Source: a candidate division WOR-3 bacterium
GTDB taxonomy: Bacteria > Hydrothermota > Hydrothermia > LBFQ01 > DSFT01
Direction: 5' to 3'
Length of the DNA stretch: 64,000 bases
NCBI GenBank assembly: GCA_965649115.1
Contig: CBFGJN010000001.1
Location: 568-64,567 of the forward strand
The position numbers and the translations under genes were made by a program. This document shows, one piece after another, positions 7,214-63,372 of the stretch (its first letter is position 1; every line of letters begins with the position of its first letter). The notes under the pieces are model-generated. The model saw only the letters and a program-made list of their open reading frames with translations. It made no database searches and was not told the origin of the DNA.

Positions 7214-8133
7214 TTTTCATTGAATGCTTTGCTTAAATATCTGCTTCCTCCATCGGGAAATAGAACAACAGCACGTTTTATTTCAGGATGCTCTTTTATG
7301 TACTTTAAAGCACCAACTAATGCCGCTCCTGATGATGGACCTACAAATAATCCCTCATATCTTAATAAATTTAAAGTCATTTCAAAAGCTTCCTTATCAT
7401 ATATTCTTACAAAATCATCAATTACTGAAAAATCTAAGGTTTTTGGTATGAAATCTTCTCCAATTCCTTCAACATCATAAACTCTTGCTTGAACAATTTC
7501 CTTTTTATAAAAATAATCATAGAGAATTGAACCATCAGGATCAATACCAACAATTTTTATTTTTGAATTCATATTTTTTAGAAATTTTCCAACACCAGAA
7601 ATTGTTCCACCTGTTCCAACACCTGCAAAGAAAGCATCAATTTTTCCATTCATTTGATACCAAATTTCAGGTCCCGTTGTTTCATAATGGGCTTTTGGAT
7701 TATTTGGATTTTCGTATTGATTAGGATAAAATGCATTTCTTTCTTTTGCTATTCTTTTTGAAACTTCATAATAACTATTTGGGTCATTTGGTGGCACATT
7801 TGTAGGACATATAACTACTTCTGCACCATAACTTCTTAACAAGTTTCTTTTTTCTTCTGAAACCTTATCTGGCATAACTGCTATAAATTTATAACCTTTT
7901 AGGTTGGAAATGAGTGCAAGACCAAGTCCTGTATTTCCACTTGTTGGTTCAACAATATAAGAGCCTTTTCTTAAAATCCCTTCTTTTTCAGCATGTTCTA
8001 TCATATAAAGTGCTATTCTATCTTTTACACTTCCTGTTGGGTTGTAAAATTCAAGTTTTGCGTATATTTCATAAGATGATGTTGAAAAACTCTTCAATTT
8101 ATAGATAGGTGTTTTGCCTATAAATTCAATCAT
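7186..8133 (-). CDS. cysK: Cysteine synthase family PLP-dependent enzyme (O-acetylserine sulfhydrylase-like)
   Basis: PLP-lysine motif SVKDRIA, the glycine-rich loop GVGTGGTISG, and a TSGNTG block. Confidence 0.85.
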   Translation of the reverse strand: MIEFIGKTPIYKLKSFSTSSYEIYAKLEFYNPTGSVKDRIALYMIEHAEKEGILRKGSYIVEPTSGNTGLGLALISNLKGYKFIAVMPDKVSEEKRNLLRSYGAEVVICPTNVPPNDPNSYYEVSKRIAKERNAFYPNQYENPNNPKAHYETTGPEIWYQMNGKIDAFFAGVGTGGTISGVGKFLKNMNSKIKIVGIDPDGSILYDYFYKKEIVQARVYDVEGIGEDFIPKTLDFSVIDDFVRIYDKEAFEMTLNLLRYEGLFVGPSSGAALVGALKYIKEHPEIKRAVVLFPDGGSRYLSKAFNENWLKERGYI

Positions 8134-8136
8134 AGT

Positions 8137-8152
8137 TTTGAAATTTTAAAGG
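8137..8152 (-). promoter_or_regulatory. Promoter-like palindrome motif immediately upstream of the cysK-like start
   Basis: CACCTTTAAAATTTCAAAACT-ATG in gene orientation. No Shine-Dalgarno sequence is present. Confidence 0.5.
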
Positions 8153-8162
8153 TGAATTAGAT

Positions 8163-8227
8163 GCTGTGCCCAAATAATTCTGAAAATCGGCACTTTTAAA
8201 ATACTCATTTTTTAATTATTTATCTTG
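8163..8227 (+). repeat. Fragment (5' end) of the repeat family
   Basis: GCTGTGCCCAAATAATTCTGAAAAT start box only. Confidence 0.5.
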
Positions 8228-9427
8228 TTATCTTTGTTCTTCCAGTTCAATATCAGGAAGATATTGACCGAAACCTTGAACATTTGAAAATAAAAGTTTA
8301 TAATCTCCTGTTCCAAGTTGGTCATAAAATTTAAATTTTTTATTTCCATTATAATAAATCCATATTACATAAGATTTCGTTCCAAGAGCAACTTCTTCCC
8401 TTCTTATATCATCTGGTTGTCCAAATAAAATGTAAATTTTGCCCATATCAGTATATCTTCCTTTTTTGAATGGTGTTGAAAATTTTAAATCTGCTTCAAT
8501 TACTCTTTGTCTAAATATAGGATAGAAAGAACCATCTGGATCTTTAATTTTCCAAAACTTTTCAATCCATAAATTTTTACTTTTTATATCCTTTATATTT
8601 CTAAATTCATTTAATTCACTTGGTGAAGCTATATAATCAATGAAATACCTTATCTCATCGTTGAGAACTATTCCTTCTCTTTGAATGATAAAGTAATGCT
8701 TTAAAACTTTTTTTATGTTTAAACCCAAATCAACAATTTCAAATTTTAAATTGTACTCTCCATCAGATATATTATTTAGTGGAATTTTTCCACTAACTAC
8801 AAGTTGTTCTTTATCCTTTATGATTAATTGAGGGCTTGATATTAAAATTACACTATCATTTTTATCTTCAATGATGTACCTTAAAAAAAGTTTTTGACTA
8901 TCCTTCTTAATATTGTAAATTTCAAAAAAGTAAAAAATTGTATCTTTGAAAATATTTGATGGATTTGGTAAAAATCCAATTCCATTTCTATAAAATGGAC
9001 TATTTAAGCTGTCTTCATAAAGTGAACTTGATAAGACAAGAGAAGAAAAATTCAAATTACTATCTTCTTGAATAATTAAAGGAAATTCAATTTTTGAAGA
9101 CTTACTTTTCGTTTTAACTTCAAATTTTATTGTATATTTCCCAGGTTTAGATAGAATTTCATAACTATCCACCATATAAATAGCATTTTTTGAAATTTTT
9201 TTGTCTTTTTTTTCTTCCATAAGTTTTTGCCTATCCAAGAAAACTCTTAAATATATTTGATAATTTTCAGAAATATCGTTTGGGTTTATTGAATAAACAA
9301 AATTTACAATATAAATATCACCTGATAGTTTAAAGTATATAGGTTCAACATAACCCCTAATAGCTCCATCTAAAACGTAACTTTTATTATCTAATGTAGT
9401 CAGTCCAACTAGAAGGAGCAAGTTCAT
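8228..9427 (-). CDS. GWxTD domain-containing protein
   Basis: C-terminal region contains FWKIKDP … GRYTDMGKIYILFGQPDDI … YVIWIY … LGTGDYKLLF, matching the GWxTD-domain architecture. Confidence 0.7.
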   Translation of the reverse strand: MNLLLLVGLTTLDNKSYVLDGAIRGYVEPIYFKLSGDIYIVNFVYSINPNDISENYQIYLRVFLDRQKLMEEKKDKKISKNAIYMVDSYEILSKPGKYTIKFEVKTKSKSSKIEFPLIIQEDSNLNFSSLVLSSSLYEDSLNSPFYRNGIGFLPNPSNIFKDTIFYFFEIYNIKKDSQKLFLRYIIEDKNDSVILISSPQLIIKDKEQLVVSGKIPLNNISDGEYNLKFEIVDLGLNIKKVLKHYFIIQREGIVLNDEIRYFIDYIASPSELNEFRNIKDIKSKNLWIEKFWKIKDPDGSFYPIFRQRVIEADLKFSTPFKKGRYTDMGKIYILFGQPDDIRREEVALGTKSYVIWIYYNGNKKFKFYDQLGTGDYKLLFSNVQGFGQYLPDIELEEQR

Positions 9428-10400
9428 AATCGCCTGTCCCGTACTTATCTATAAAAATAAACCTAAGATTTAAGCTTTCATAGTACCATATTTGATATGG
9501 TCTATCGTAAAGATTTAGTTCGCTTTTCTCTATATAATCAGGAGGTCCGTACCTTAAATAAACTAATCCCATAGCATTTATTTTGTTATTTTTAGTATAA
9601 TTTTTTATAACATAATGGTATCTTTGTAAAAATAATTCTTTCTCTTCGTTTAAATTTGTATTTGGAGTTGGGTCCTTATCTTTCCAAAAACTTTCCCACG
9701 CTTTCTTTAAGTCATTGTTGTTCTTTTTAAGATATTTACTAAATTCTCCTGAGTAAAGGTAGTTAAGAGCAAAGATAAGGTTTTTAAGTTCATCGGAAGT
9801 TAGGTTAAATAGTCCAAGCTTTTGAAATTCAAATGTTCTTGAAATTTTAAATTTTTTATATTTAAATTCTAATTTGCCTTCATATCTATCAAGTTTCAGG
9901 TTTTTAATTTCAAGAGGAATTTCTACTTCATTTTCACCATCTCTCAAATAAAATTTGTAGTTCTTCTTCGTTTTACTTTTTAAACTTTCAAATTTCATTT
10001 CAATATTTATAGTATCGTTAATTTTTGAATAGATTGGGACTTTTAATACTAAAAAACTATCATTTTCTTCATATTTATTTTTATTAGTTATAGGCTTTCC
10101 AAGAATAAAATAATCATTGCTTTGTGGTTTTAAGTTAAATGAAGTGTCATAAAGTGTAGCATCTGTTTTTTGGTTTTTAACTAAAAAATTAACTTTATAG
10201 CTTTCATTATATTTTAGGTTAATTTTTAAATTAAGAGAACTATCAAATTCAACAATTTCAGATTTAAAAATTTTTTTGTTTTCAAAAACATCATAAAGAG
10301 CTCTATAATTTCCTTTTTCATTTAAAACAAAATTAATAACTAATAAGTAGTTTTCTTTTTGAGGAATTTCTATGACTTGAATAAAATTAATAAGCCACAC
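9387..10400 (-). CDS. GWxTD domain-containing protein (paralog of 8228-9427)
   Basis: Same C-terminal block: FWKDKDP … GLVYLRYGPPDYI … YQIWYY … YGTGDYELAP. Confidence 0.7.
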   Translation of the reverse strand: MWLINFIQVIEIPQKENYLLVINFVLNEKGNYRALYDVFENKKIFKSEIVEFDSSLNLKINLKYNESYKVNFLVKNQKTDATLYDTSFNLKPQSNDYFILGKPITNKNKYEENDSFLVLKVPIYSKINDTINIEMKFESLKSKTKKNYKFYLRDGENEVEIPLEIKNLKLDRYEGKLEFKYKKFKISRTFEFQKLGLFNLTSDELKNLIFALNYLYSGEFSKYLKKNNNDLKKAWESFWKDKDPTPNTNLNEEKELFLQRYHYVIKNYTKNNKINAMGLVYLRYGPPDYIEKSELNLYDRPYQIWYYESLNLRFIFIDKYGTGDYELAPSSWTDYIR

Positions 10401-11235
10401 CTATCTCCCTCGCAAGTTGTTTTAGCCTCTTTATTCTTTCACTTGTTGGTGGGTGGGTTGAAAATAGTTTTTGTAATCCTTCCAAAACGGGAGGAATTAT
10501 AAACATATGACTTGTTGCTGGATTTGCTTGGAATTGATAATCATAAACACCCTTTTCAATTTTTTCAAGGGCATTTGCTAATGCTATTGGATCTCTTATA
10601 AATTTTGCTCCTGTCTCATCTGCTAGGAATTCTCTTGAACGGGATATAGCCATTTGTATTATTATAGCTGAGATTGGGGCAAGTAGAATTATTAATATAT
10701 CTAAAATTGGGTTATGATTTTGCCTTTCGTCTGAACTCCTAAAAATAAACATCCATCTTCCTATTTCAATTAAATATACAATAGCACTTGCCAAAACTGC
10801 GGAAATTGTAGATATTAAAATATCTCTATTTTTTATATGAGCTAACTCGTGAGCTATAACACCTTTTAATTCTCTTTCATCAAGTATTCTCAAAATACCA
10901 GTTGTGAATACAACTGCTGAATGATTAGGGTTTCTACCTGTTGCAAAGGCATTCGGAGCTGTTTCTTCTATTATATAGACCTTTGGCATAGGAAGATTTG
11001 CTTTTATTGCAACTTCCTTTACAAGTTCATATAACTTTGAACTTTTGTCAACTTCTTTTGCTCCGTACATTTTAAGGACAATTTTATCAGAGAACCAGTA
11101 AGAAAAGAAATTAAATATAATTGCAATAACGAGAGCAATCGTAAGTCCTATTTTCCCTCCAAAGTATCCACCAATCACAATTAAGAGAGCAGAAAGCAAC
11201 GTCAATAATATAAGTGTCTTTATTTGGTTAGTCAT
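10387..11235 (-). CDS. htpX: Zinc metalloprotease HtpX
   Basis: N-terminal TM helices, HEXXH motif AHELAHIKNRD, and M48 family length. Confidence 0.9.
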   Translation of the reverse strand: MTNQIKTLILLTLLSALLIVIGGYFGGKIGLTIALVIAIIFNFFSYWFSDKIVLKMYGAKEVDKSSKLYELVKEVAIKANLPMPKVYIIEETAPNAFATGRNPNHSAVVFTTGILRILDERELKGVIAHELAHIKNRDILISTISAVLASAIVYLIEIGRWMFIFRSSDERQNHNPILDILIILLAPISAIIIQMAISRSREFLADETGAKFIRDPIALANALEKIEKGVYDYQFQANPATSHMFIIPPVLEGLQKLFSTHPPTSERIKRLKQLAREIGVAY

Positions 11236-11293: not shown

Positions 11294-11372
11294 TGCTTTG
11301 TCCAATAAGAGGCATAAGAATGGTGATTTGTAAGCCGAAGGCTTGAATACAGGGTGAGTGGGAGAAATAAGA
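11294..11372 (-). repeat. Partial repeat copy in reverse orientation
   Basis: TGCTTTGTCCAATAAGA … AAGCCGAAGGCTT … AGGGTGAGTGGG, the reverse complements of the family boxes. Confidence 0.6.
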
Positions 11373-11433
11373 AATAATCTATTTGTCTAGTAAATTAAGG
11401 AAGGGTGAATGATTAAGCCTTTCTAAAAAATAA

Positions 11434-11612
11434 TGCTTTGTCCAGTAAATAATGTTAAGTAATTGACAATCAATAACTTATAAAAATCTACTTGAAACTA
11501 TTGATTTTATTGGGAGGAATTAAGGGGGCGAAGTTATAAGCGGAAGGCTTAATTTCAGTGGGGCTAGGAAAACAAAGAAAAATAAATACTTTCAGAATTT
11601 TCAGACACACCA
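11434..11612 (-). repeat. Repeat copy in reverse orientation
   Basis: TGCTTTGTCCAGTAAATAATG … TCAATAACTTATAAAA … GGGGGCGAAG … AAGCGGAAGGCTT … TTTCAGAATTTTCAGACACACCA. Confidence 0.7.
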
Positions 11613-11680
11613 GATAGTAAGGAAAGTTATGCTTTAAAATTTTCAAAGTTAGCTATGCTAACTAAAAAGGAGGTAAGGGT

Positions 11681-12642: not shown

Positions 12643-12694
12643 TAAGGATAAATCTTTATGAATTTTTAATGAAATTATTGAATTTGTAGGGGTT

Positions 12695-12880
12695 TGCCTT
12701 CCTATACCGAAAAAGTGTTAAGTTGTTGATTATTAATAATTTATAAATTTTTAAGAAAATCACTTATTTATTGGGGGGTTTTAAGGAGGACGAAGATTTT
12801 AAGCCATAGGCTAAGTTTTTATTTTTGTAAATCAAAACATTTGCCTCCATAAGTTATTGATAATCAGAAATTTATAAAAC
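12695..12880. repeat. Degenerate repeat-family remnant(s)
   Basis: GGGGGGTTTTAAGGAGGACGAAG, AAGCCATAGGCTAAG and TTATTGATAATCAG boxes. Confidence 0.45.
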
Positions 12881-18483: not shown

Positions 18484-18737
18484 GCTGTGTCTAATAATTC
18501 TGGAATTATTTATTTTCCTCCTAAAACAAGGATTTCTAATAAATTTTCATAAGTTAAAGCATAATTCTAAAAATATAATCATTCCTATTTAAGGCTTCAC
18601 AATTCATCAACCCTCCATTGTCTTGAAATGCTTGAAGTAATAGGGAATTAAAAAGGCTTAGAACCGAAGGCTCAATTCGTAGGGTGAGTGGTAAAAGTAT
18701 AGAAATAATTATACTCTCAGAATTTTTGGACACAGCA
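18484..18737. repeat. Repeat element with perfect inverted ends (head-to-head arrangement of family termini)
   Basis: Starts GCTGTGTCTAATAATTCTGG and ends CAGAATTTTTGGACACAGCA. The interior has AACCGAAGGCTC and AGGGTGAGTGG boxes in reverse orientation. Confidence 0.7.
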
Positions 18738-18757
18738 AAAACCATTTATTTTTTAGC

Positions 18758-18774
18758 TTTAAAATTTTCAAAGT
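18758..18774 (+). promoter_or_regulatory. Promoter-like palindrome CTTTAAAATTTTCAAAG upstream of serS
   Basis: Ends 4 nt before the serS ATG. No Shine-Dalgarno sequence. Confidence 0.5.
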
Positions 18775-23597: not shown

Positions 23598-23670
23598 AGC
23601 GAGCGACGGGACTCGAACCCGCAACCCCCAGCTTGGAAGGCTGGCGCTCTACCAATTGAGCTACGCTCGC
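23598..23670 (-). tRNA. tRNA-Gly (anticodon UCC)
   Basis: Reverse complement GCGAGCGTAGCTCAATTGGTAGAGCGCCAGCCTTCCAAGCTGGGGGTTGCGGGTTCGAGTCCCGTCGCTCGCT folds as a cloverleaf. The anticodon loop is CTTCCAA and the discriminator is U. CCA is not encoded. Confidence 0.85.
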
Positions 23671-24555: not shown

Positions 24556-24640
24556 ATCGGGTGGCTTTTTGGCTTTAAAAACTCCATTTTTTGGCATTGG
24601 GGGTTCGCCTTTATAAATACTTTGGGTGAGAAATTCCAAA
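24556..24640 (+). repeat. Degenerate repeat fragment
   Basis: GGGTGGC … GGGGGTTCGCCTTTATAAATAC boxes. Confidence 0.4.
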
Positions 24641-24645
24641 TTACC

Positions 24646-24828
24646 TGCTTTGTCCAATAAATAATGTTAAATGCCTAATAATCAATAACTTATAAAATTT
24701 TTAAGGAAATTATTGAATTTTAGCCCCCCATAACCGAAAAATGGGTATTTTTAAGCCGAAGGCTTAATTTCAGGGTGGGTGGGAAAAATATAGAAAAATA
24801 AATAATTTCAGAATTATTAGACACAGCA
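24646..24828 (-). repeat. Repeat copy in reverse orientation
   Basis: TGCTTTGTCCAATAAATAATG … AATCAATAACTTATAAAA … GCCCCCCATAACCGAAAAATGGG … AAGCCGAAGGCTT … AGGGTGGGTGGG … CAGAATTATTAGACACAGCA. Confidence 0.8.
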
Positions 24829-24863
24829 TAATTTCAGGAAATTTATCCTTTAAACTTTTCATA

Positions 24864-26327: not shown

Positions 26328-26836
26328 TGCTATTTTTTATTTTTGGTTGTTTAAATGCCCAAAACTCTCTAAAATTAAATGAAGAGAAATTAAATGAATT
26401 TATTAAAAAAAATTTTAAAAATTATCAGCTCTTTGAAAAGCCTATTATAAGAAAACAATATAAAAATTTTATTCTTGTTGATTTTGCTTATGCTGGTGCA
26501 ACAGGAAATTATTCGGTTTTGATTATAAATAAAAACAATAATTTTCAAATTGCAAAACTTAAAAATAAAGAAATTAAAAATGCTATATTTCTAATTGCTT
26601 CAGGAGGAGCTGGAAGATATAGTTCTTATGTGGAACTTGATGATAAATTAAAAGTTTTTGAATATTCAATTTATGGAGAGGATAATGATTATTGTAGGGT
26701 TGAAGTTTATAGTTTTCAAAAAGGTTATTTTATTTACGACAAAACTTTAAGTGATATAGAAAGGAAAAATTATTGTAAAAAAATTTGTGAAATGCTTTCA
26801 ATTGAAAGTAAAGTTTGTAAAACCTTGGAAAAATAA
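26312..26836 (+). CDS. Hypothetical secreted protein or lipoprotein
   Basis: N-terminal signal peptide LMLFFIFGCLNAQ. Confidence 0.4.
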   Translation: MARYLMLFFIFGCLNAQNSLKLNEEKLNEFIKKNFKNYQLFEKPIIRKQYKNFILVDFAYAGATGNYSVLIINKNNNFQIAKLKNKEIKNAIFLIASGGAGRYSSYVELDDKLKVFEYSIYGEDNDYCRVEVYSFQKGYFIYDKTLSDIERKNYCKKICEMLSIESKVCKTLEK

Positions 26837-26900
26837 ATCATTATAAGGACTAATATAGGGTAATCTGCCCCCCATAAAAACTATATTTTCTTAAAATTTT

Positions 26901-27857
26901 TTAGTCACTTATTTCCATTACAATTTTTCCTCTAACATGACCGCTTTCTAATATCTTATGAGCTTTTTTAACACTTTCAACACTAAATGGTAAAACCTCT
27001 GAAATTATTGGTTTCACTAATCCCCTTTCAATAACTTCCTTCATTTCTTCAAGTCTTTTACTTTCTCTTGTTAAGAAAATCCCATATAGAGTTATATTAT
27101 TTCTATAAAGCAATGATAAATCTCCTTTCGGTGGTAATATACAAGCAACCCTTCCAAAAGGTTTAATTACAGGTAAAACTCTTGAAACGATGTTATCACC
27201 TTGAATATCAAAAGCACAGTCAACCCCTTTATTTTCAGTTATTTCCATAACAATTTTATTTACATCGTCATTATAGTCAATAACATAATCTGCTCCAATT
27301 TGCTTTAAGAAGTCAAAATTTCTTGGACTACTTGTTGCAATTACTCTTGCAGAAATCATTTTAGCAAACTGAACAGCAAAAGAACCAACACCACCTGCTC
27401 CCGAATGAATAAGAATTGTCTCGTAAGGCCTTATATTTAACCTTCTAACAATTGCTTCCCAGGCTGTTCCTCCTGCTAAGGGAACAGCTGATGCTTCAAT
27501 GAATGACAAATTTTTTGGTTTTTTTGAAACAATGTTTGCTTTAACAACATTATATTCTGCATAAGCACCATTTGGATTATTATATATTTCAGGAGTGTAA
27601 TAAACTTCATCACCGACTTTAAAATCTTTAACACCTTCCCCAACTTCTTCAACAATTCCACTTACATCATAACCTATTATAATAGGTGGCTTTAATCCAG
27701 CCCAAGTTCCATTTATTCTTATTTTATAATCAACAGGGTTAAAAGCAACTGCCTTAACCTTCACAAGTATTTCGCCAGCATTAGGTTTTGGTTTTTTCAT
27801 TTCAGTCATTTCAAAGTTTTCAACATCTCCAAACTCTTTAAGAACGATCGCACGCAT
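26901..27857 (-). CDS. Zinc-type alcohol dehydrogenase-like / NADPH:quinone oxidoreductase (MDR family)
   Basis: GroES-like N-terminal domain and Rossmann GxGxxG (GAGGVGSFAVQ) block. Confidence 0.85.
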   Translation of the reverse strand: MRAIVLKEFGDVENFEMTEMKKPKPNAGEILVKVKAVAFNPVDYKIRINGTWAGLKPPIIIGYDVSGIVEEVGEGVKDFKVGDEVYYTPEIYNNPNGAYAEYNVVKANIVSKKPKNLSFIEASAVPLAGGTAWEAIVRRLNIRPYETILIHSGAGGVGSFAVQFAKMISARVIATSSPRNFDFLKQIGADYVIDYNDDVNKIVMEITENKGVDCAFDIQGDNIVSRVLPVIKPFGRVACILPPKGDLSLLYRNNITLYGIFLTRESKRLEEMKEVIERGLVKPIISEVLPFSVESVKKAHKILESGHVRGKIVMEISD

Positions 27858-27896
27858 AGTTTGAAAATTTTAAAGCTTTTTAGAGACTTTCAATTG

Positions 27897-28032
27897 CTGT
27901 GTCTAGCCTAAAAATAAGGCTTCGCCTTATAAATGCCCATTTTTCGGCTATGGGAGGGCTTAAATTCAATAATTTCATTAAAAATTTTACAAGTTCTTGA
28001 TCGTCAAGGACTTAACACTATTTATTGGACAA
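27897..28032 (+). repeat. Compact repeat copy. Its 3' end overlaps the C-terminal codons of ORF 27987-28556.
   Basis: GCTGTGTCTAGCC … AAGGCTTCGCCTT (hairpin with swapped stem) … TTTTCGGCTATGGGAGGG … TCAAGGACTTAACACTATTTATTGGACAA. Confidence 0.7.
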
Positions 28033-28556
28033 TTGTATAATTGCAAATTTCTATTTATAATTTCTTTTAAATTTTTCAAAGTTTGACTTTTTTCAAAATT
28101 AGTGAAAATAATTTCTAAAACTTGTTCAAATTTAAATTCAGATTTGAGTTCCTTCAATTTGCCATAATTAGTTCCTTTTATTTCTTTATATATTTCATTT
28201 ACAAAACTTTCAATTGCTTTTGGTTTGACAATCCAAACTTGATGTTTGGGATTTTGTTTCTTTTTAAAAATTATCATTAAATCATTTTCGCATGAATTAT
28301 AATCTTCATGGAGTTTTAATTTTTTAGCGAGTTTATCAAAATGTTGTTCATTATCATAATCAAAAACTGCAATTATTAGTTTATTTTTATTATTATTTTT
28401 AATTCTTTTACAATAAGTTTTTATAACTCCATCATAACCACCTGTTTCTACTTCATCTGAGCAGTGTAAAACATCACAAACAGCATTTAGTTTTAAAAAA
28501 TCTCGTAATTTCTTAAAAAATGAGTAATCATTATTACATTCAACAATAAAAATCAT
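27987..28556 (-). CDS. Small TOPRIM-like protein (DUF4276/DUF4435-like), partner of the AAA_21 ATPase
   Basis: N-terminal IFIVEC (conserved Glu) followed by IIAVFDYDNE (DxD) about 60 aa later, the TOPRIM arrangement. Start overlaps the ATPase stop (ATGA). Confidence 0.5.
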   Translation of the reverse strand: MIFIVECNNDYSFFKKLRDFLKLNAVCDVLHCSDEVETGGYDGVIKTYCKRIKNNNKNKLIIAVFDYDNEQHFDKLAKKLKLHEDYNSCENDLMIIFKKKQNPKHQVWIVKPKAIESFVNEIYKEIKGTNYGKLKELKSEFKFEQVLEIIFTNFEKSQTLKNLKEIINRNLQLYNCPINSVKSLTIKNL

Positions 28557-29647
28557 TTTTTACTGAAATATTCAGTATTAAGGAAGGGGTCTAAATCTTC
28601 TTCTTGATAAATTTTTTCAGTTATATCAATAATTTTTGTTTCTTCATTCTCAAATTTAAATAGAAGAACTGCAACATCTTTATTTTCCTTACCTTCTCTA
28701 ACAAGTTTTCTAAATAGATAAGGATTATGAGTTGAAATGAAAAATTGGTTTTCACTATAATAAATATCTTTTGCCATTTCAAAAATAAATGGAGGGAAAA
28801 CTTTACTTTCAGGTTCTTCAAAAATTAAAGTTGAATTTTCTGATGAATGAATTGCTGATAAATAAAAGATGTAGTTCCTCAAAGTATCTGCTAACAATAG
28901 ATAAGAAAGTCTTATAATTTTCCCTTCCTTTTTCTTAACGACATAGTACTCCTTATCATCTACATCTTCGTAAATTTCATACCCTATTTTTTGAAGATAA
29001 AGTCTAAATCTCTCATAAACTTCTCTGTTTCTATTTAAAATTCCAAATATATTTTTGCCATAAGGTGGAATAAGGGAAGGATAATAAAAATTGTATCTTT
29101 CTTTTTCTTCTAAATCCAAATGATAATATCTTTTTACAGAATTTAAGGGTTTTGGTACTTCAATTTCACCAAGGTATTCAATTCCAAAATTTCCTTTATA
29201 AAATTTAAATTCCAAATTTTTTGAAATGGAAAAACTATAAAAAATTTTTCCTTTCATTTTTTCTGTGAGTTCTAAAAGATTTTTTACTTGTTCCAATTCT
29301 TCTTCAAATTTTAATTTGTCTTGATACCTTATTAGAAATCCGCAAACTGATTCAACATAATCAAAAATAATAAGTGAAAATTCTTTGTTAATATCAATAT
29401 AAATTTTTTCTTGAATGTTCTTAAAATAAAAAAGTTCATAGGGGGAGTTAATACGAATAATTTTTTTGTCAATTAACATTGGTGATTTCGTTAATAAAAA
29501 ATTTATAGGGTTTAAAATAGTTAAGGCTTCTAAAAAGTTGCTTTTCCCTGAGTTTGGACTTCCAATAATTAGATTTATTCTTCTTATATTTTCCAACTTA
29601 ACATCTTTAAGGGTTTTGAAATTTCTTATACTGATTTCTCTAATCAT
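28553..29647 (-). CDS. AAA_21/ABC-type ATPase of the OLD/PARIS-AriA-like defense family
   Basis: N-terminal ISIRNFKTLKDVKLENIRRINLIIGSPNSGKSNFLEAL (SMC-like Walker A), a LIFEEPESKVFP Walker B/D-loop, and an STHNPYL H-loop. Confidence 0.65.
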   Translation of the reverse strand: MIREISIRNFKTLKDVKLENIRRINLIIGSPNSGKSNFLEALTILNPINFLLTKSPMLIDKKIIRINSPYELFYFKNIQEKIYIDINKEFSLIIFDYVESVCGFLIRYQDKLKFEEELEQVKNLLELTEKMKGKIFYSFSISKNLEFKFYKGNFGIEYLGEIEVPKPLNSVKRYYHLDLEEKERYNFYYPSLIPPYGKNIFGILNRNREVYERFRLYLQKIGYEIYEDVDDKEYYVVKKKEGKIIRLSYLLLADTLRNYIFYLSAIHSSENSTLIFEEPESKVFPPFIFEMAKDIYYSENQFFISTHNPYLFRKLVREGKENKDVAVLLFKFENEETKIIDITEKIYQEEDLDPFLNTEYFSKK

Positions 29648-29682
29648 ATTTAAAATTTTAAAGGAAAAAATTTTATTTATCT

Positions 29683-29800
29683 GCTGTGTCTAGGAATTCT
29701 AAAATCATTTATTTTTCACCCTTTAAATAAAGCTTCGCCCTAATAAAATCAATAATCTCAAAAAAGTTTTTATAAGTTTGTGTCTAATAATTAATACCCC
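29683..29800 (+). repeat. Compact or degenerate repeat copy plus a fragment
   Basis: GCTGTGTCTAGGAATTCTAAAATCATTTATTTTTCACCC … AAAGCTTCGCCCT … AAAATCAATAATC, then GTTTGTGTCTAATAATTAATACCCCCC. Confidence 0.6.
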
Positions 29801-29821
29801 CCGTCTTAGATAAAACGCAAT

Positions 29822-31219
29822 CTATTTAATTAAAGACCTTACAACTTCCTCATCATCAAAATGATATTTTATTCCCTTGATTTCTTGATATGTTTCATGA
29901 CCTTTTCCTGCAATTAAAATAACATCATCTTCATTTGAAATGGAAATTGCAAGTTCTATTGCTTTTTTTCTGTCTATTTCAATAATGTGAGCCTTATCAA
30001 TACCTTCTTCTATATCTCTAATAATATCCATAGGGTCTTCATCTCTTGGATTATCGCTTGTTAAAATAATAATATCAGCTATTTGTGAAACTTTTCCCAT
30101 AATTGGTCTTTTTAAATGATCTCTATTTCCACCTGCTCCAAAAACCAAAATAATTTTTTTATTATAAACACTTTTTAATGTTTTCAAAACCCTTTCAAGA
30201 GCATCAGGTGTATGAGCATAATCAATAAATACATTTTTTATTTTTTGTAATCTTCCTTTTGGTGGTTTAACGTTTCTTAAAACATCAATAATTTTATTAA
30301 TGTCAAATCCAATTGAATTCAATATGGAAAATGAGCAAAGTAAATTATAAGCATTAAATTCACCTATGAAGTTTTCATTTTCAATAATTTTATCAAAAAC
30401 TTTTATTTTTAAACCATTTTTTGAATTTTCAATAATCTCTCCTTTTATATTAGCATTTTTATAAAATCCATATGTTATTGCTTTACCCTTACAGGCATTT
30501 ATGAAATAAGGACTATTCTCATCATCTAAATTTATAATACCAATAGCATTTTCATTTAACATTCTAAATAATTTGAGTTTTGCTTCTCTGTAATTTTCAA
30601 ATGTTTTGTGAAAATCAAGATGATCTATCGTTAAATTTGTAAAAACTGCTATTTTGAAATTAACATCATCAACTCTATTTAGTGCTAATGAATGACTTGA
30701 AACTTCCATTACAAGAAATTCACCATTATTTTTTAGAATTTCAAACATGTACCTTTGTAAATCTAAGGATTGAGGCGTTGTTAATTTTGGCACTTCTTTT
30801 CTTGAAATTAAATCATTTATTATTGTTCCAAGAAGAGCAGTTTTATGTCCCAATAGATTTAAAGCTTGATAAGTTATATAGGTTGTTGTAGTTTTTCCAT
30901 TCGTTCCTGTAATTCCTATTACAAATAAATTTTTTGAGGGATAATTGTAAAATTTTGCTGAAATTTTTGAAAGTTCAATTCTTGAATTTTCAACAATTAC
31001 TTGATTAACCTTTACATCTAACTTTCTTTCAACAACAATAGCTTTTGCTCCATTATTGATTGCTTCATATACAAAATCATGACCATCAAACTTTTCTCCC
31101 TTTATTGCAAAAAAGACATAATTTTCTTTTACTTCTTTGCTATTATAGGCAATTCCTTCAACTATAAAATCTTCAAAGTTTTCAATTTTATAACCTTCAA
31201 ATAATTCTGAGAACTTCAA
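29822..31219 (-). CDS. murE: UDP-N-acetylmuramoyl-L-alanyl-D-glutamate--2,6-diaminopimelate ligase
   Basis: Mur ligase P-loop GITGTNGKTTTT and the MurE-specific DNPRDEDP (DNPR) motif. Confidence 0.9.
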   Translation of the reverse strand: MKFSELFEGYKIENFEDFIVEGIAYNSKEVKENYVFFAIKGEKFDGHDFVYEAINNGAKAIVVERKLDVKVNQVIVENSRIELSKISAKFYNYPSKNLFVIGITGTNGKTTTTYITYQALNLLGHKTALLGTIINDLISRKEVPKLTTPQSLDLQRYMFEILKNNGEFLVMEVSSHSLALNRVDDVNFKIAVFTNLTIDHLDFHKTFENYREAKLKLFRMLNENAIGIINLDDENSPYFINACKGKAITYGFYKNANIKGEIIENSKNGLKIKVFDKIIENENFIGEFNAYNLLCSFSILNSIGFDINKIIDVLRNVKPPKGRLQKIKNVFIDYAHTPDALERVLKTLKSVYNKKIILVFGAGGNRDHLKRPIMGKVSQIADIIILTSDNPRDEDPMDIIRDIEEGIDKAHIIEIDRKKAIELAISISNEDDVILIAGKGHETYQEIKGIKYHFDDEEVVRSLIK

Positions 31220-31470
31220 AGTTGTTTATAAAGAATTACAAGGATAAGCCCAAAAATTAACATTATTAAAGAAAATGAAAACATTAAGGAAAGTGAGAAA
31301 TTGAAAGCAACTAAATCAACTTTTAAGTTTTCTATTCCAAATCTGATTTTGTGAGTTAAAAATTCACTTGCAGGGTGAGGAGGAAAGTATCTGTTTATTG
31401 ACCAATCTAAGATAGTTCCTATAATAATACCGATTATAAATACAACAAAATAAGATTTTACTGATTTCAA
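31216..31470 (-). CDS. Small integral membrane protein upstream of murE. The start is uncertain.
   Basis: Two TM helices. The longest ORF would begin inside the tRNA-Leu gene, so the real start is probably internal or non-ATG. Confidence 0.4.
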   Translation of the reverse strand: MKSVKSYFVVFIIGIIIGTILDWSINRYFPPHPASEFLTHKIRFGIENLKVDLVAFNFSLSLMFSFSLIMLIFGLILVILYKQL

Positions 31471-31473
31471 AGA

Positions 31474-31559
31474 TGCCCGGGGAGGGACTCGAACCCTCAC
31501 GCCCCTTTCGGGGCCCAGGATTTTAAGTCCTGTGCGTCTTCCGATTCCGCCACCCGGGC
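31474..31559 (-). tRNA. tRNA-Leu (anticodon UAA)
   Basis: Reverse complement GCCCGGGTGGCGGAATCGGAAGACGCACAGGACTTAAAATCCTGGGCCCCGAAAGGGGCGTGAGGGTTCGAGTCCCTCCCCGGGCA. Long variable arm, anticodon loop CTTAAAA, discriminator A. Confidence 0.85.
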
Positions 31560-38190: not shown

Positions 38191-38350
38191 ACCACTTACC
38201 TGCTTTGTTTAATAATTCTAAAATTATTTATTTTTCTTTATTTCCCCACCCACCCTAAAAATAAGCCTTCGGCTTATAAAAGCCCCTATTTTTTTTCAGG
38301 AGGCTTTGCCCCCTTATTAACCCCCATAAAATCAATAGGGACTTAAAATA
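38191..38350 (+). repeat. Repeat copy (3'-truncated)
   Basis: TGCTTTGTTTAATAATTCTAAAATTATTTATTTTT … CCCACCCACCCTAAAAATAAGCCTTCGGCTTATAAAAGCCCC … CCCCCATAAAATCAATAGGGACTTAAAA. Confidence 0.75.
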
Positions 38351-47984: not shown

Positions 47985-48527
47985 AATAAGTTATTTTCGA
48001 GTGGGTGGGGAAAATAAAGTTGCTTTGTTCAATAAAAATTTTAAGAAAACTATTGATTTTAGCGGGTTTTTAAGGGGGGCAAAGCCCCCCATAACCGAAA
48101 TAGACACAGCAAATATATTTTGCTTTGTCCAGTAATTATTGTCAATCACTTGATAATCAATAACTTATAAAATTTTTAGGGAAATTATAGATTTCATTAG
48201 GGGGATTTTAGGGGGGCGAAGTCCCCCACAGCCTAAAAATGGGCATTTTAAAGCCGAAAGCTTTTATTTAGGGTGAGCGAGGAAAAATAGTAAAATAAAT
48301 AATTTTAGAATTATTAGACACAGCAAATATATTTAACTTTGTCTAGTAATTGGTGTTAAGTTATTGATAATCAATAATTTGTGAAAACTTAATAAAATTA
48401 TTGTCTTTATGGGGGTTTTAAGGGGGGCGAAGCCCCCCATAGCCGAAATATGGGTATTTTAAAGCCGAAGGCTTAATTTTAGGGTGGGTGGGAAAAATAA
48501 ATGGTTTTAGAATTACTAGACACAGCA
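47985..48527 (-). repeat. Array of three reverse-orientation repeat units plus a leading fragment, separated by a constant AATATATTT(T/A) spacer
   Basis: Units approximately 48011-48111, 48122-48325 and 48336-48527. Each starts (T)GCTTTGTYYARTAA and ends AGACACAGCA. The GGGGGGC(A/G)AAG(C/T)CCCCC hairpin is present in all. Confidence 0.8.
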
Positions 48528-48561
48528 AATATATTTATCAATTCTACTTTAAAATTTCATT

Positions 48562-51992: not shown

Positions 51993-52054
51993 AGTATGAA
52001 ATTTTAAACGAGGTAAAAGATGAAAAATTATTTTAATGAGACTTTTGATTTCAT

Positions 52055-52180
52055 GGGGGGATTGAAGGGGGTGGTAGCCCCCTACTGCTGAAAAATGTGT
52101 ATTTTAAAGGTTCCACCTTGGTGGATGGGTAAAATAAAGAAATAATCTATATTTTAGAATTACTAGACAAAGAAAATAAT
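52055..52180 (-). repeat. Degenerate repeat copy in reverse orientation
   Basis: GGGGGGATTGAAGGGGGTGGTAGCCCCC … GGTGGATGGG … TTTAGAATTACTAGACAAAG. Confidence 0.55.
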
Positions 52181-52212
52181 TTTAAATAATTTTCCTTAAA
52201 ATTTTAAGTTTA

Positions 52213-58699: not shown

Positions 58700-58903
58700 G
58701 CCTTGTCCAATAATTCTGGAAATATAATTATTTCTATATTTTCCCACCCGCCCTAAAAATAAGCCTTCGGCTTTAAAAAACCCCATCTTTTGCTATGGGG
58801 GGCTCTGCCCCCCATAAAGTGCCCCCATTATTTCAAGTATTTCAATTAATACTTAATAAGTAGTTGATTATCAATCACTTAGCAATAATTATTGGACAAA
58901 GCA
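58700..58903 (+). repeat. Full-length repeat unit
   Basis: GCCTTGTCCAATAATTCTGG … CCCACCCGCCC … AAGCCTTCGGCTT … GGGGGGCTCTGCCCCCC … TTGATTATCAATCA … AATTATTGGACAAAGCA. Preceded by ATTTTTTTGT. Confidence 0.8.
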
Positions 58904-58913
58904 AGAGTTAGTT

Positions 58914-59116
58914 GCTGTGTCTAAGAATTCTGAAAGTATTTATTTTTCTTATTTTGCCCACCCGCCCTGAAATAAAGGCTACGCCTTTAAAATGCCCATT
59001 TTTCGGCTGTGGGGGGCTCCGCCCCCCATTAGATCCCCCATAAAATCAATAGTTTTATTGAAATTTTCGTAAGTCATTGATAATCAAGGATTTAACAATA
59101 ATTATTGGACAAAGCA
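58914..59116 (+). repeat. Full-length repeat unit (tandem to the previous one)
   Basis: GCTGTGTCTAAGAATTCTGAAA … CCCACCCGCCC … AAAGGCTACGCCTTT (stem-swapped hairpin) … GGGGGGCTCCGCCCCCC … AATTATTGGACAAAGCA. Followed by ATTTTTTTGT. Confidence 0.8.
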
Positions 59117-59126
59117 ATTTTTTTGT

Positions 59127-59200
59127 GCTGTGTCCAGTAATTCTGAAATATAAAATAATTCTTTTTCCCCCGAAAAATCAAGAGTTTTAATTAACAATAT
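59127..59200 (+). repeat. 5' fragment of a third tandem repeat unit
   Basis: GCTGTGTCCAGTAATTCTGAAATATAAAATAATTC. Confidence 0.6.
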
Positions 59201-59207
59201 TTTTCAT

Positions 59208-59225
59208 GCTTTAAAATTTTCAAAC
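59208..59225 (+). promoter_or_regulatory. Promoter-like palindrome GCTTTAAAATTTTCAAAC immediately upstream of the riboswitch
   Basis: The riboswitch P1 stem begins 1-2 nt after the motif. Confidence 0.55.
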
Positions 59226-59226
59226 A

Positions 59227-59366
59227 TGCAGGCGACAGGGAAGAGGGGTGAAATTCCCCCGCTGTCCCAGCAGCCGTGATGGGCATAAAAATTGCCCCTG
59301 AAAGCCACTGCCGAAAGGTGGGAAGGCTCAGGGGTTTTTAGCCCTAAGCCGGAAGACCTGCCTGCA
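59227..59366 (+). promoter_or_regulatory. Cobalamin (AdoCbl) riboswitch
   Basis: P1 TGCAGGC…GCCTGCA. Conserved AGGGAAGAGGGGTGAAATTCCCC, GCCACTG and GGGAAGGC elements. B12 box AAGCCGGAAGACCTGCC. A downstream hairpin CCCTTCCTG…CAGGAAGGGG can sequester the GGAGG RBS. Confidence 0.85.
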
Positions 59367-60841
59367 TGCTTCAAAACCCTTCCTGCTGGGGTTCAGGAAG
59401 GGGGGAGGTTGTAAGCTTGCTTGATACTATAATTGTTATAGATACTTTTAGATTTTTTTATAAAATTGATAGTTTAAGTAAATTTTCAGATTTTAGGGAA
59501 GTTTTTAGACAGAATAGTTCTATTATTTTTAGAGAACTTTCTAATAGGATTGTAGTTTCAATAAGAGGACTTGAAGATAAGCAAAATGAAGTTTATTTAA
59601 ATGGTGTAAAATTGAATAATCCAATTTGGGGATTTTTTTATGCTAATGCTTTACCTTTAAATTTAATAAGTTCTTCAAACGTTATTCTGAATAATTATAG
59701 AGTAAATTTTGAAATTTCAGGGGAGAAAGAAATTGGATTTTTTATTGGCTCATATAATAAATTTTCAATGTACTATAAAAATGGAACTTTTGGAATTGAA
59801 AGAACATATAATGAAAATAATTACAGATATTGGGATAGTTTTAATAGGGAATATCAAAGAAAAAATAATTTTGAAGATAAAATTGGAGGATTTTTAAATT
59901 TTAAGAATTTAAGCATCATTTTTTATGATGGAATTTTTGGAATGCCATTAAGAGGATATGGTAATGAAGGAAGCGATTTTGAAATTTATAAAGGTTTAAT
60001 TTTAAGTTATAAAAATCATTATTTTAATTATCAATTCTATCGCTATAATTATGAAAAACCCTATGAAAGCTATATATTGGATCTCAATTATTTCCAAGTA
60101 GTTTTTTCAAATATGGAAGAATTTCACAAAAGATTTATTTTCAAAATGCCTTTCAAATATCTTGGTTATTTTTCAATAGTTTTAGATGAAAACAATTTCA
60201 AATTTGACTATTTAATTTCAAAAGCTTTTAGGTATCATAATTTTATTTTTGAATTAGCACTAAAAAGAAGAATTCCAAATTTTTCTGAATTATATTATAA
60301 AAGTAATTATGCAATTGGAAATCAAAGCTTAACCCCTGAAAATTTTTACACATTACAAATGAAATATAAACTTTTTGACATTTTTATAACTTATATTCAA
60401 AATCCTATTTTATGGCTACCTGATGAAAATTATTGGAAAGCTCAAAACTTAAATTATTTATTTTTATATGGTTTTGAAATGGATTATAATTATAGATTTT
60501 TAGAGTTTTCAGTTTCTTATATCAAAAATAAGCTTTCAAATAACATGATATTGCCATATAGACCAAATTTAACAATTTCAGCCTCTATAAATTACAATTT
60601 TAGCTCTTTCTTGAAAGATAAATTAGTTTTTATATATTATTCAAAAAGACCAAGCTATTATTATCCTTCAAGTTTTTATTTAGAACCAATTTTAATAATA
60701 GATTATTATAAATTCTTTGAGTTTAAAAAGTTTTTCTTCTACATTTACTTTAAAAATCTTTTAAATAAATCTTATGAGTTTATAAAAGGCTATCCTATGG
60801 AAAGCTTTTCTTTAAACATAAAAGGAGGTTTAAAGTGGTAG
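59366..60841 (+). CDS. TonB-dependent outer-membrane receptor, BtuB-like (start uncertain; no recognisable signal peptide)
   Basis: The TonB-box-like DTIIVIDTFRF aligns with BtuB DTLVVTANRF. Plug motif VSIRGLEDKQNEVYLNGVKLNN. C-terminal aromatic (…GGLKW). A candidate TTG start at 59417 lies 8 nt after GGAGG. Confidence 0.6.
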   Translation: MLQNPSCWGSGRGEVVSLLDTIIVIDTFRFFYKIDSLSKFSDFREVFRQNSSIIFRELSNRIVVSIRGLEDKQNEVYLNGVKLNNPIWGFFYANALPLNLISSSNVILNNYRVNFEISGEKEIGFFIGSYNKFSMYYKNGTFGIERTYNENNYRYWDSFNREYQRKNNFEDKIGGFLNFKNLSIIFYDGIFGMPLRGYGNEGSDFEIYKGLILSYKNHYFNYQFYRYNYEKPYESYILDLNYFQVVFSNMEEFHKRFIFKMPFKYLGYFSIVLDENNFKFDYLISKAFRYHNFIFELALKRRIPNFSELYYKSNYAIGNQSLTPENFYTLQMKYKLFDIFITYIQNPILWLPDENYWKAQNLNYLFLYGFEMDYNYRFLEFSVSYIKNKLSNNMILPYRPNLTISASINYNFSSFLKDKLVFIYYSKRPSYYYPSSFYLEPILIIDYYKFFEFKKFFFYIYFKNLLNKSYEFIKGYPMESFSLNIKGGLKW

Positions 60842-63089: not shown

Positions 63090-63372
63090 ATTGGGGGTAG
63101 GGTTTTAAGGGAGTCCCCCCATAGCCTAAAAATGGACATTTAAAAGATGGATTTTTTAAAGCTGTGGGCTTAATTTTTAGGATAGGTAGGCAAAATATAG
63201 AAATACAATAACTTATAAATTTTTAAGGAAATTGTTAATTTATTGGGGGAAATTAAGGGGGGCGAAGCCCCCCACTGCCGAAAAATGGGTATTTTTAAGC
63301 CGAAGGCTTAATTATAGGGTGGGTGGGCAAAATATAGAAATGAATATATTTTTAGAATTATTGGACACAGCA
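63090..63372 (-). repeat. Two reverse-orientation repeat units
   Basis: GGGAGTCCCCCCATAGCCTAAAAATGG … and GGGGGGCGAAGCCCCCCACTGCCGAAAAATGGGTATTTTTAAGCCGAAGGCTTAATTATAGGGTGGGTGGGC … TTTTTAGAATTATTGGACACAGCA. Confidence 0.75.

Follow-up and report, generated by a model that had tools for sequence, protein, structure and literature searches.

The window analysed here is a 64,000-nucleotide stretch of a candidate division WOR-3 bacterium (GenBank assembly GCA_965649115.1, contig CBFGJN010000001.1, positions 568 to 64,567), with a GC content of 27%. Between qor and murE it carries two overlapping genes that encode an ABC-type ATPase and a small TOPRIM-like partner (Table 1), a pair that a reading made from the letters alone (the sequence-only reading) had singled out as a repeat-flanked island and a candidate PARIS- or OLD-like anti-phage system. 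Translation of the open reading frames (ORFs) recovered both overlapping genes and all the motifs quoted in that reading at the positions given for them, including the H-loop STHN of the ATPase (residues 305-308) and the IFIVEC (residues 2-7) and VFDYD (residues 64-68) stretches of the small protein. The two ORFs overlap by 4 nucleotides, and an overlap of up to 4 nucleotides also occurs at most of 43 related loci. The same pair sits in the same place in a sister genome (L001; GCA_965648865.1), which over 6.4 kb shares 99.1% identity with the window and differs from it by 56 single-nucleotide polymorphisms (SNPs), none of them within positions 28010-28556 and one in the ATPase gene. We consider it very probable that the two genes form a translationally coupled operon of an ABC ATPase and an OLD-type TOPRIM protein.

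The assignment of the larger protein to the AAA_15/AAA_21-type ABC ATPases holds. It scores above the Pfam cut-offs for both AAA_15 (E = 1.3e-12, 48.4 bits against 32.1) and AAA_21 (E = 6.5e-9, 36.7 bits against 27), and all residues conserved in its clade are kept. The Walker A motif is contained in NLIIGSPNSGKSNFLEAL (residues 25-42). A large protein database yielded 425 homologues, those listed being about 30% identical and mostly 320-390 amino acids long. Across an alignment of 120 homologues, the positions of GSPNSGKSN, FEEPE and THN are 85-100% conserved (98-100% for G29, P31, N32, G34, K35, S36 and N37), and the window ATPase retains every strongly conserved position (G29xPNxGKSN37, E40, R65, PPxGxN199, DTL256, FEEPE280 and NQxFIxTHNPY310). 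Judged by these residues, the ATPase is intact and looks functional.

As to its closest named relatives, 74 PADLOC models match the ATPase, the top one being AbiLi (E = 2.3e-19, 68 bits; residues 1-357 spanning model positions 1-334 of 340). Other matches, at 35-53 bits, are to PDC-M38A, HEC-01A, NsnB, HEC-02A, AriA and GajA. Among these, HEC-01A aligns with residues 2-316 (E = 2.6e-14) and PDC-M38A gives one match at the N-terminus only (E = 8.4e-15) and another at full length (residues 2-335, E = 7.4e-11), while the AriA matches (42-43 bits) are generic, falling below AbiLi and being comparable to those of many other ATPase models. To judge by these scores, the PADLOC similarity is at the level of the family and gives no specific assignment. 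The ATPase also lies far under all cut-offs of the NCBIfam equivalogs for MADS MAD3, the retron Eco8 effector, RecF, Rad50 and PtuA. The top NCBIfam match, MADS MAD3 (NF047739, E = 7e-11), scores 41.9 bits where the cut-off is 420, over residues 1-98 only, and RecF (TIGR00611) reaches 30.3 bits against 172 over residues 2-46 only; identity with MAD3 and with RecF/RecR was rejected on these grounds. Sequence matches to solved structures are best for RecF and Rad50 (E = 7e-4 to 1e-2) and are confined to the N-terminal 45 residues.

That the two genes belong together is borne out decisively by their co-occurrence in other genomes, bacterial and archaeal. All nine ATPase homologues that were looked up are followed directly, on the same strand, by a gene for a protein of ~150-190 amino acids that overlaps the ATPase gene or lies within ~60 nucleotides of it. 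The relationship also holds in reverse: when one genome per species was scanned with the small protein family, 43 of the 44 loci found had, by hmmsearch, the ATPase gene directly upstream, the single exception being a marginal 32-residue match. The taxa represented include Dehalococcoidia, Nitrospinota, Bacteroidota, Bathyarchaeia, Thermococci and Halobacteria. Motifs that recur in the partner family are hhVEC..D, a His, G-h-h-DEDP, C-P-R-L-E-E-W and LH..IN; in most partners a Cys stands next to the TOPRIM Glu (VEC..D), on its C-terminal side, and the conserved His and another Cys ahead of P-R-L-E-E-W accompany it, and two longer partners (L136 and L137) carry the canonical EG..D in place of VEC..D. 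An AlphaFold model of one family member, P0132, is of high quality (pLDDT, the predicted local distance difference test, 93.6; predicted template modelling score (pTM) 0.88), and its best fold matches are the TOPRIM domains of OLD, GajA, PH0156 and AriB. We take PH0156 (PDB 2P62) to be the structural representative of DUF3226. On the strength of this model, the partner family is predicted to be an OLD-type TOPRIM family. PH0156 also heads the HHpred matches published for a lactococcal AriB/DUF4435 protein (PMC11381338).

The small protein of the window is a distant relative of this family. Pfam assigns it to DUF3226 (PF11536) at 30.4 bits (cut-off 27; E = 4.2e-7), with residues 2-140 covering profile positions 3-147 of 208; under neither name is this family mentioned in the literature searched. 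Single-sequence searches, one word-indexed over 5.8 billion proteins and one exhaustive with phmmer over 1.84 billion representatives, returned only the sister-strain copy; phmmer and profile searches of PDB sequences gave noise only, and PHROGs gave no match. The connection comes from an independent profile of 67 sequences, built from the genome-locus partners plus the divergent L136, L137, L135 and L010 and excluding the window protein, which aligns with residues 2-171 of that protein (hhalign probability 92.3%, P = 5.4e-7; hmmsearch E = 1.8e-6). A far stronger score of E = 3e-33 for the window protein (P0001) was discounted as circular, the protein having been part of the query profile. Residues E6, D10, D66, D68 and E116 fall in columns that the family conserves, E116 in the register given by HMMER, hhalign and the intermediate sequences, where P112-K-A-I-E116-S-F of the window aligns with N-P-A-I-E-K-W of L136 and P-R-L-E-E-W of the family. 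The profile alignments thus make the small protein a divergent member of the partner family, which is consistent with its place after a homologous ATPase, and it is assigned to the OLD-type TOPRIMs because of the homology and motifs that it shares with that family.

Table 1 Features of the locus and of the dispersed repeat element (window coordinates).
Feature	Position	Strand	Basis or remark
ABC-type (AAA_15/AAA_21) ATPase gene, 364 amino acids	28553..29647	-	ORF list
Walker A (P-loop) codons, G29-S-P-N-S-G-K35-S-N37	29537..29563	-	Sequence
Walker B codons, F276-E-E-P-E280	28808..28822	-	96-100% conserved in clade
H-loop codons, T306-H307-N308, within NQxFIxTHNPY	28724..28732	-	T306 and H307 100% conserved in clade
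ATGA overlap of ATPase stop and partner start (translational coupling)	28553..28556	-	ORFs, sequence
Small TOPRIM-like partner gene, 189 amino acids	27987..28556	-	Native part ~residues 1-174; last ~14 codons repeat-derived
Codons for E6-C7-N-N-D10, putative first TOPRIM acidic motif (equivalent of OLD-type EGxxD/E)	28527..28541	-	E, C and D at least 90% conserved in partner family
Codons for D66-Y-D68, putative TOPRIM DxD	28353..28361	-	D66 and D68 unchanged in all alignments made
Codon for E116 in P112-KAIE-SF, probable equivalent of family P-RLEE-W	28209..28211	-	Register by HMMER, hhalign and MAFFT with intermediates
MITE-like repeat copy with internal deletion, between qor and small gene	27896..28035	+	3' end overlaps small ORF
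Partial MITE-like repeat copy, between ATPase start and murE stop	29682..29800	+	Sequence comparison
Variable segment: qor, small gene, ATPase gene and both repeat copies	~26819..29824	.	Absent from relatives at locus
Dispersed copies of the element	~7-430, 2539-2945, 11316-11646, 12661-12760, 18484-18772, 24640-24859, 27896-28035, 29682-29800, 38196-38338, 48035-48557, 52030-52207, 58704-59148, 63110-63372		

The surroundings of the related loci are varied. At four of them (L008, L009, L014 and L047) the pair lies between or beside DUF1156 and DUF499 genes, a combination that we take to be the Hma/MADS-type arrangement, in which Payne et al. found embedded defence cassettes, HEC-01 among them, the text of that study not using these gene names. 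Of 45 loci, some 40 are stand-alone. Y-family polymerases (IMS) account for 3 of 82 flanking proteins, their gene being next door at three related loci, and one pair (L136) adjoins an EcoRV-type restriction-modification pair. A homologous pair, gp15-gp16, is encoded by Geoglobus ahangari pleomorphic virus 1 (L138; BK065157.1, 5364-6805), an archaeal pleolipovirus provirus, where it is flanked by winged-helix regulators and has a RelE/ParE toxin nearby. A tblastn search with the partner protein found no plasmid copy. At two loci (L035, 4989-5982, and L048, 5043-6004) a frameshift or pseudogenisation has divided the ATPase gene between two ORFs, and some copies of the module thus appear to be decaying.

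Several known systems share the logic of the pair. In the OLD nucleases, ATPase and TOPRIM are fused in Class 1 (P2 Old, TsOLD) and Class 2 (GajA), and PARIS has been proposed as 'Class 4' (PMC10568477). In PARIS, an AriA hexamer sequesters AriB until the ATP-dependent detection of a viral protein frees AriB to cleave tRNA-Lys, with anti-restriction proteins as activators, the assembly having a 6:3 stoichiometry and the proteins sizes of 55 and 35 kDa (PMC11464382). Like PARIS, the window pair has its AAA_15/21 ABC ATPase and its TOPRIM protein encoded separately, with the ATPase gene first, and just as PARIS is often found on mobile elements, a relative of the pair resides in a provirus. Yet the window proteins, at 364 and 189 amino acids (an estimated ~42 and 22 kDa), are much smaller, AriB and DUF4435 go unmatched and the AriA matches are generic, so membership of PARIS fails; the suggestion that the small partner is an uncharacterised variant shorter than AriB is fair, given its length and the lack of a match to any AriB, DUF4435 or DUF4276 model. 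In the matched structures, OLD and GajA each consist of one polypeptide chain of ~510-630 residues, whereas the window pair comprises two genes; with separate ORFs joined by an ATGA overlap and no GajB-like helicase among the window neighbours, membership of OLD Class 1 or Gabija fails as well. Most partner-family proteins, that of the window included, further differ from OLD in having a Cys instead of a Gly after the first Glu.

HEC-01 resembles the pair in its two-gene logic, in the match of the ATPase to HEC-01A and in that relatives of the pair lie embedded with DUF1156 and DUF499 genes on either side, but its partner models (HEC-01B) are matched neither by the small protein of the window nor by seven members of the partner family. 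For PDC-M38, the ATPase matches PDC-M38A and the small protein matches PDC-M38B only weakly (17.8 bits); we know of no activity test of this system. AbiL of Lactococcus is a two-gene abortive-infection system, and its AbiLi is the top PADLOC match of the window ATPase, but AbiLii is unmatched by the small protein and 68 bits for AbiLi denotes family-level similarity, not orthology. Membership of PARIS, Gabija, OLD, AbiL and HEC-01 was accordingly rejected, either because the partner models are unmatched or because the fused architecture is absent. The split ATPase/TOPRIM design is already known from PARIS, HEC-01 and AbiL, and the most fitting description of the window pair is that of a minimal, as yet uncharacterised variant of this design. 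As far as its sequence can tell, the pair would in effect be an OLD nuclease divided between two small genes.

The idea of a mobile islet finds partial support at the locus. In nine metagenomic relatives (L055-L063), whose MurE proteins are 79-93% identical to that of the window, the ATPase gene, the small gene and qor are all absent after murE. The slot is empty in L060, where the ends of murE and of a conserved gene for a 174-amino-acid protein (hyp174) are 9 nucleotides apart. In L056, L057 and L058 it holds one to six tandem paralogues of a 175-amino-acid Uma2-family protein (PF05685, putative restriction endonuclease), the run in L058 spanning 7594-10773, and in L061 murE is followed by a gene for a 177-amino-acid Uma2-like protein, just under the Pfam cut-off, and then by housekeeping genes. 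These observations support the view that the pair is accessory and occupies a strain-variable slot downstream of murE. Present in the window and L001 and absent from L055-L063, it shows presence/absence polymorphism at a conserved site, but island-specific repeats are lacking and no integrase or transposase gene was seen adjoining the pair at the window locus. Nor is qor a fixed neighbour of the pair: where the pair is missing from this locus in relatives, qor is missing too, and the variable segment, ~3 kb long, includes it.

The flanking repeats themselves are real, and far beyond chance. The motif GCTGTGTCTAG starts at 27896 and 29683, with related stretches following at both places, and occurs nine times in the window with at most one mismatch, against 0.19 occurrences expected. 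It belongs to an element that resembles a miniature inverted-repeat transposable element (MITE), ~205-215 nucleotides in full, with 16-nucleotide terminal inverted repeats (GCTGTGTCYAATAATT ... AATTATTGGACAAAGC) and an interior of two GC-rich UUCG-type hairpins with compensatory changes; no Rfam family matches it. At least 15 full or partial copies, some in tandem, are present in the 64 kb, and one of them abuts a cobalamin riboswitch at 59213-59379. The repeats are therefore not the boundaries of an island: they form a genome-wide MITE-like family that fills many intergenic regions without specificity for the pair, and for this reason they are no marker of its mobility. The left copy nevertheless touches the pair: it begins roughly at the point where family members terminate, and it supplies about 14 codons at the 3' end of the small ORF. 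Positions 27990-28009 (5118-5137 in L001) contain 7 of the 56 SNPs that separate the two strains, and the stop codon of the sister strain lies 7 codons farther upstream; this cluster in the repeat-derived tail suggests that repeat copies have exchanged sequence.

If PARIS, OLD and Gabija are taken as models, the pair would serve defence against phages or mobile elements, or abortive infection, a function to which we assign a probability of roughly 0.6. Under this reading, an ATPase oligomer would restrain the nuclease and sense an infection cue, ATP-dependent activation would free or switch on the TOPRIM nuclease, which might then cleave nucleic acid (DNA, or tRNA as AriB does) by two-metal catalysis, and this cleavage would either block the invader or abort the infection. 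A more far-reaching proposal, which is tentative and on balance doubtful, is that the pair and its relatives constitute a distinct, minimal split-OLD immune family of bacteria, archaea and an archaeal virus, in which an ATPase of ~330-360 amino acids is joined to a TOPRIM effector of ~150-190 amino acids, usually with VEC..D, and which could have its own trigger and nucleic-acid target, unlike those of PARIS, OLD or Gabija.

A number of results weigh against a defence role or against the TOPRIM assignment on which it builds. With respect to context, the neighbours of the pair in the window, qor and murE, are housekeeping genes; most related loci are likewise stand-alone among housekeeping genes and outside defence islands, and only three DUF499 and two DUF1156 proteins are among the 82 flanking proteins. 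The small protein has no match, at E up to 1, to DUF4435 in Pfam or to any AriB model in PADLOC, nor does it match the models of AbiLii, HEC-01B and DUF4276, and its match to PDC-M38B is weak (E = 5.2e-4, 17.8 bits, residues 2-121). Its family fares no better, with matches for none of 20 core partners in Pfam (DUF3226 included), none of seven in PADLOC (three core and four more divergent partners, HEC-01B included) and neither of two in PHROG (one core, one long-type). The claim that the small protein is TOPRIM-like stands as distant membership of the OLD-type TOPRIM partner family, with the Glu and the DxD kept, but draws no support from its own AlphaFold model, which was built from a 21-row alignment, has a pLDDT of 59.6 (below 50 for residues 82-138) and gave no significant Foldseek match, its fold matches being generic Rossmann or P-loop-kinase-like proteins. 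A smaller profile of 20 sequences without the window protein recognised it only marginally (7.3 bits, hhalign probability 27%). When only the core family was aligned with it, MAFFT placed its second half in another register (P103..W108), which is thus ambiguous between aligners; this alignment appears to mis-register the second half, and the intermediates, by sequence comparison, settle the register on E116. Finally, the closest published candidate, HEC-01, in which an ABC ATPase and a TOPRIM protein are embedded together in Hma, protected against none of the phages tested (bioRxiv 10.1101/2024.01.29.577857).

Four other explanations were weighed against defence. Under the first, which is unlikely though not far-fetched, the pair is a selfish addiction or inter-element competition module of toxin-antitoxin type, in which the ATPase restrains a TOPRIM toxin and which persists since its loss is harmful or since rivals of the mobile element are excluded, not for host immunity. 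The strain-variable slot, the provirus relative near a RelE/ParE toxin, the stand-alone position of most loci among housekeeping genes and the failure of HEC-01 to protect all fit such a module. It overlaps in mechanism with abortive-infection defence, however, which makes the two hard to separate, and it lacks both an integrase or transposase at the window locus and a plasmid copy in the tblastn search.

It is rather improbable that the pair is a decaying, non-functional remnant whose small gene has drifted far and been hit by a repeat insertion. Such decay would agree with the isolation of the small protein in single-sequence searches, where the 1.84 billion representatives held only its sister-strain copy, with its poor predicted structure, with a repeat-derived C-terminus that differs between the two strains and with the frameshifted ATPase of some relatives. 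Yet both ORFs are intact, the ATPase motifs and the five acidic TOPRIM residues are all kept, the repeat starts about at the normal family end and so only adds a tail, the two strains are nearly free of substitutions in the native part of the pair, and the divergence fits the bias of a genome region with 27% GC.

More improbable still is an orphaned accessory module of a methylation-linked Hma/MADS-type system (DUF1156 plus DUF499), inert on its own. The relatives between DUF1156 and DUF499 genes and the top NCBIfam match of the ATPase, to MADS MAD3, speak for it, but that match is a tenth of the cut-off and limited to the N-terminal part, stand-alone loci predominate, and embedded cassettes have been argued to work independently (Payne et al. 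2024, bioRxiv 10.1101/2024.01.29.577857). A housekeeping or stress-related DNA-repair pair after the manner of RecF (ABC ATPase) and RecR, itself a TOPRIM protein (PMC10568477), is very improbable: although RecF and Rad50 are the best solved-structure matches of the ATPase and a Y-family polymerase gene is next door at three loci, the RecF similarity is confined to the P-loop region and far below its cut-off, the small protein has neither the helix-hairpin-helix nor the zinc-finger region of RecR and belongs to a family whose fold matches OLD-type TOPRIMs best, and the pair is absent from close relatives at the locus and scattered across phyla, unlike core repair genes.

Modules that combine an ATPase with a TOPRIM nuclease (OLD, Gabija, PARIS) are a major theme of prokaryotic immunity, with triggers and targets known for few of them, and the present family is about the smallest version of this design, spread across many bacterial and archaeal phyla. 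Since searches of Pfam, PADLOC and PHROG left the partner family unmatched, annotation by such means would presumably miss the pair. If active, the pair would offer a compact system in which to study how the activity of a TOPRIM nuclease can be gated by an ABC ATPase, and would widen the defence catalogue of uncultured lineages such as WOR-3 and of archaea. The window locus taken alone is one more divergent copy, of value mainly as a pointer to the family.

As regards expression signals at the locus, a promoter scan performed no better than on shuffled sequence, and a terminator scan gave no minus-strand terminator. Farther out, two tRNA genes lie on the minus strand, at 23598-23670 and 31474-31559; the latter overlaps the start region of an ORF for 94 amino acids upstream of murE (31216-31500), the start of which is therefore doubtful.

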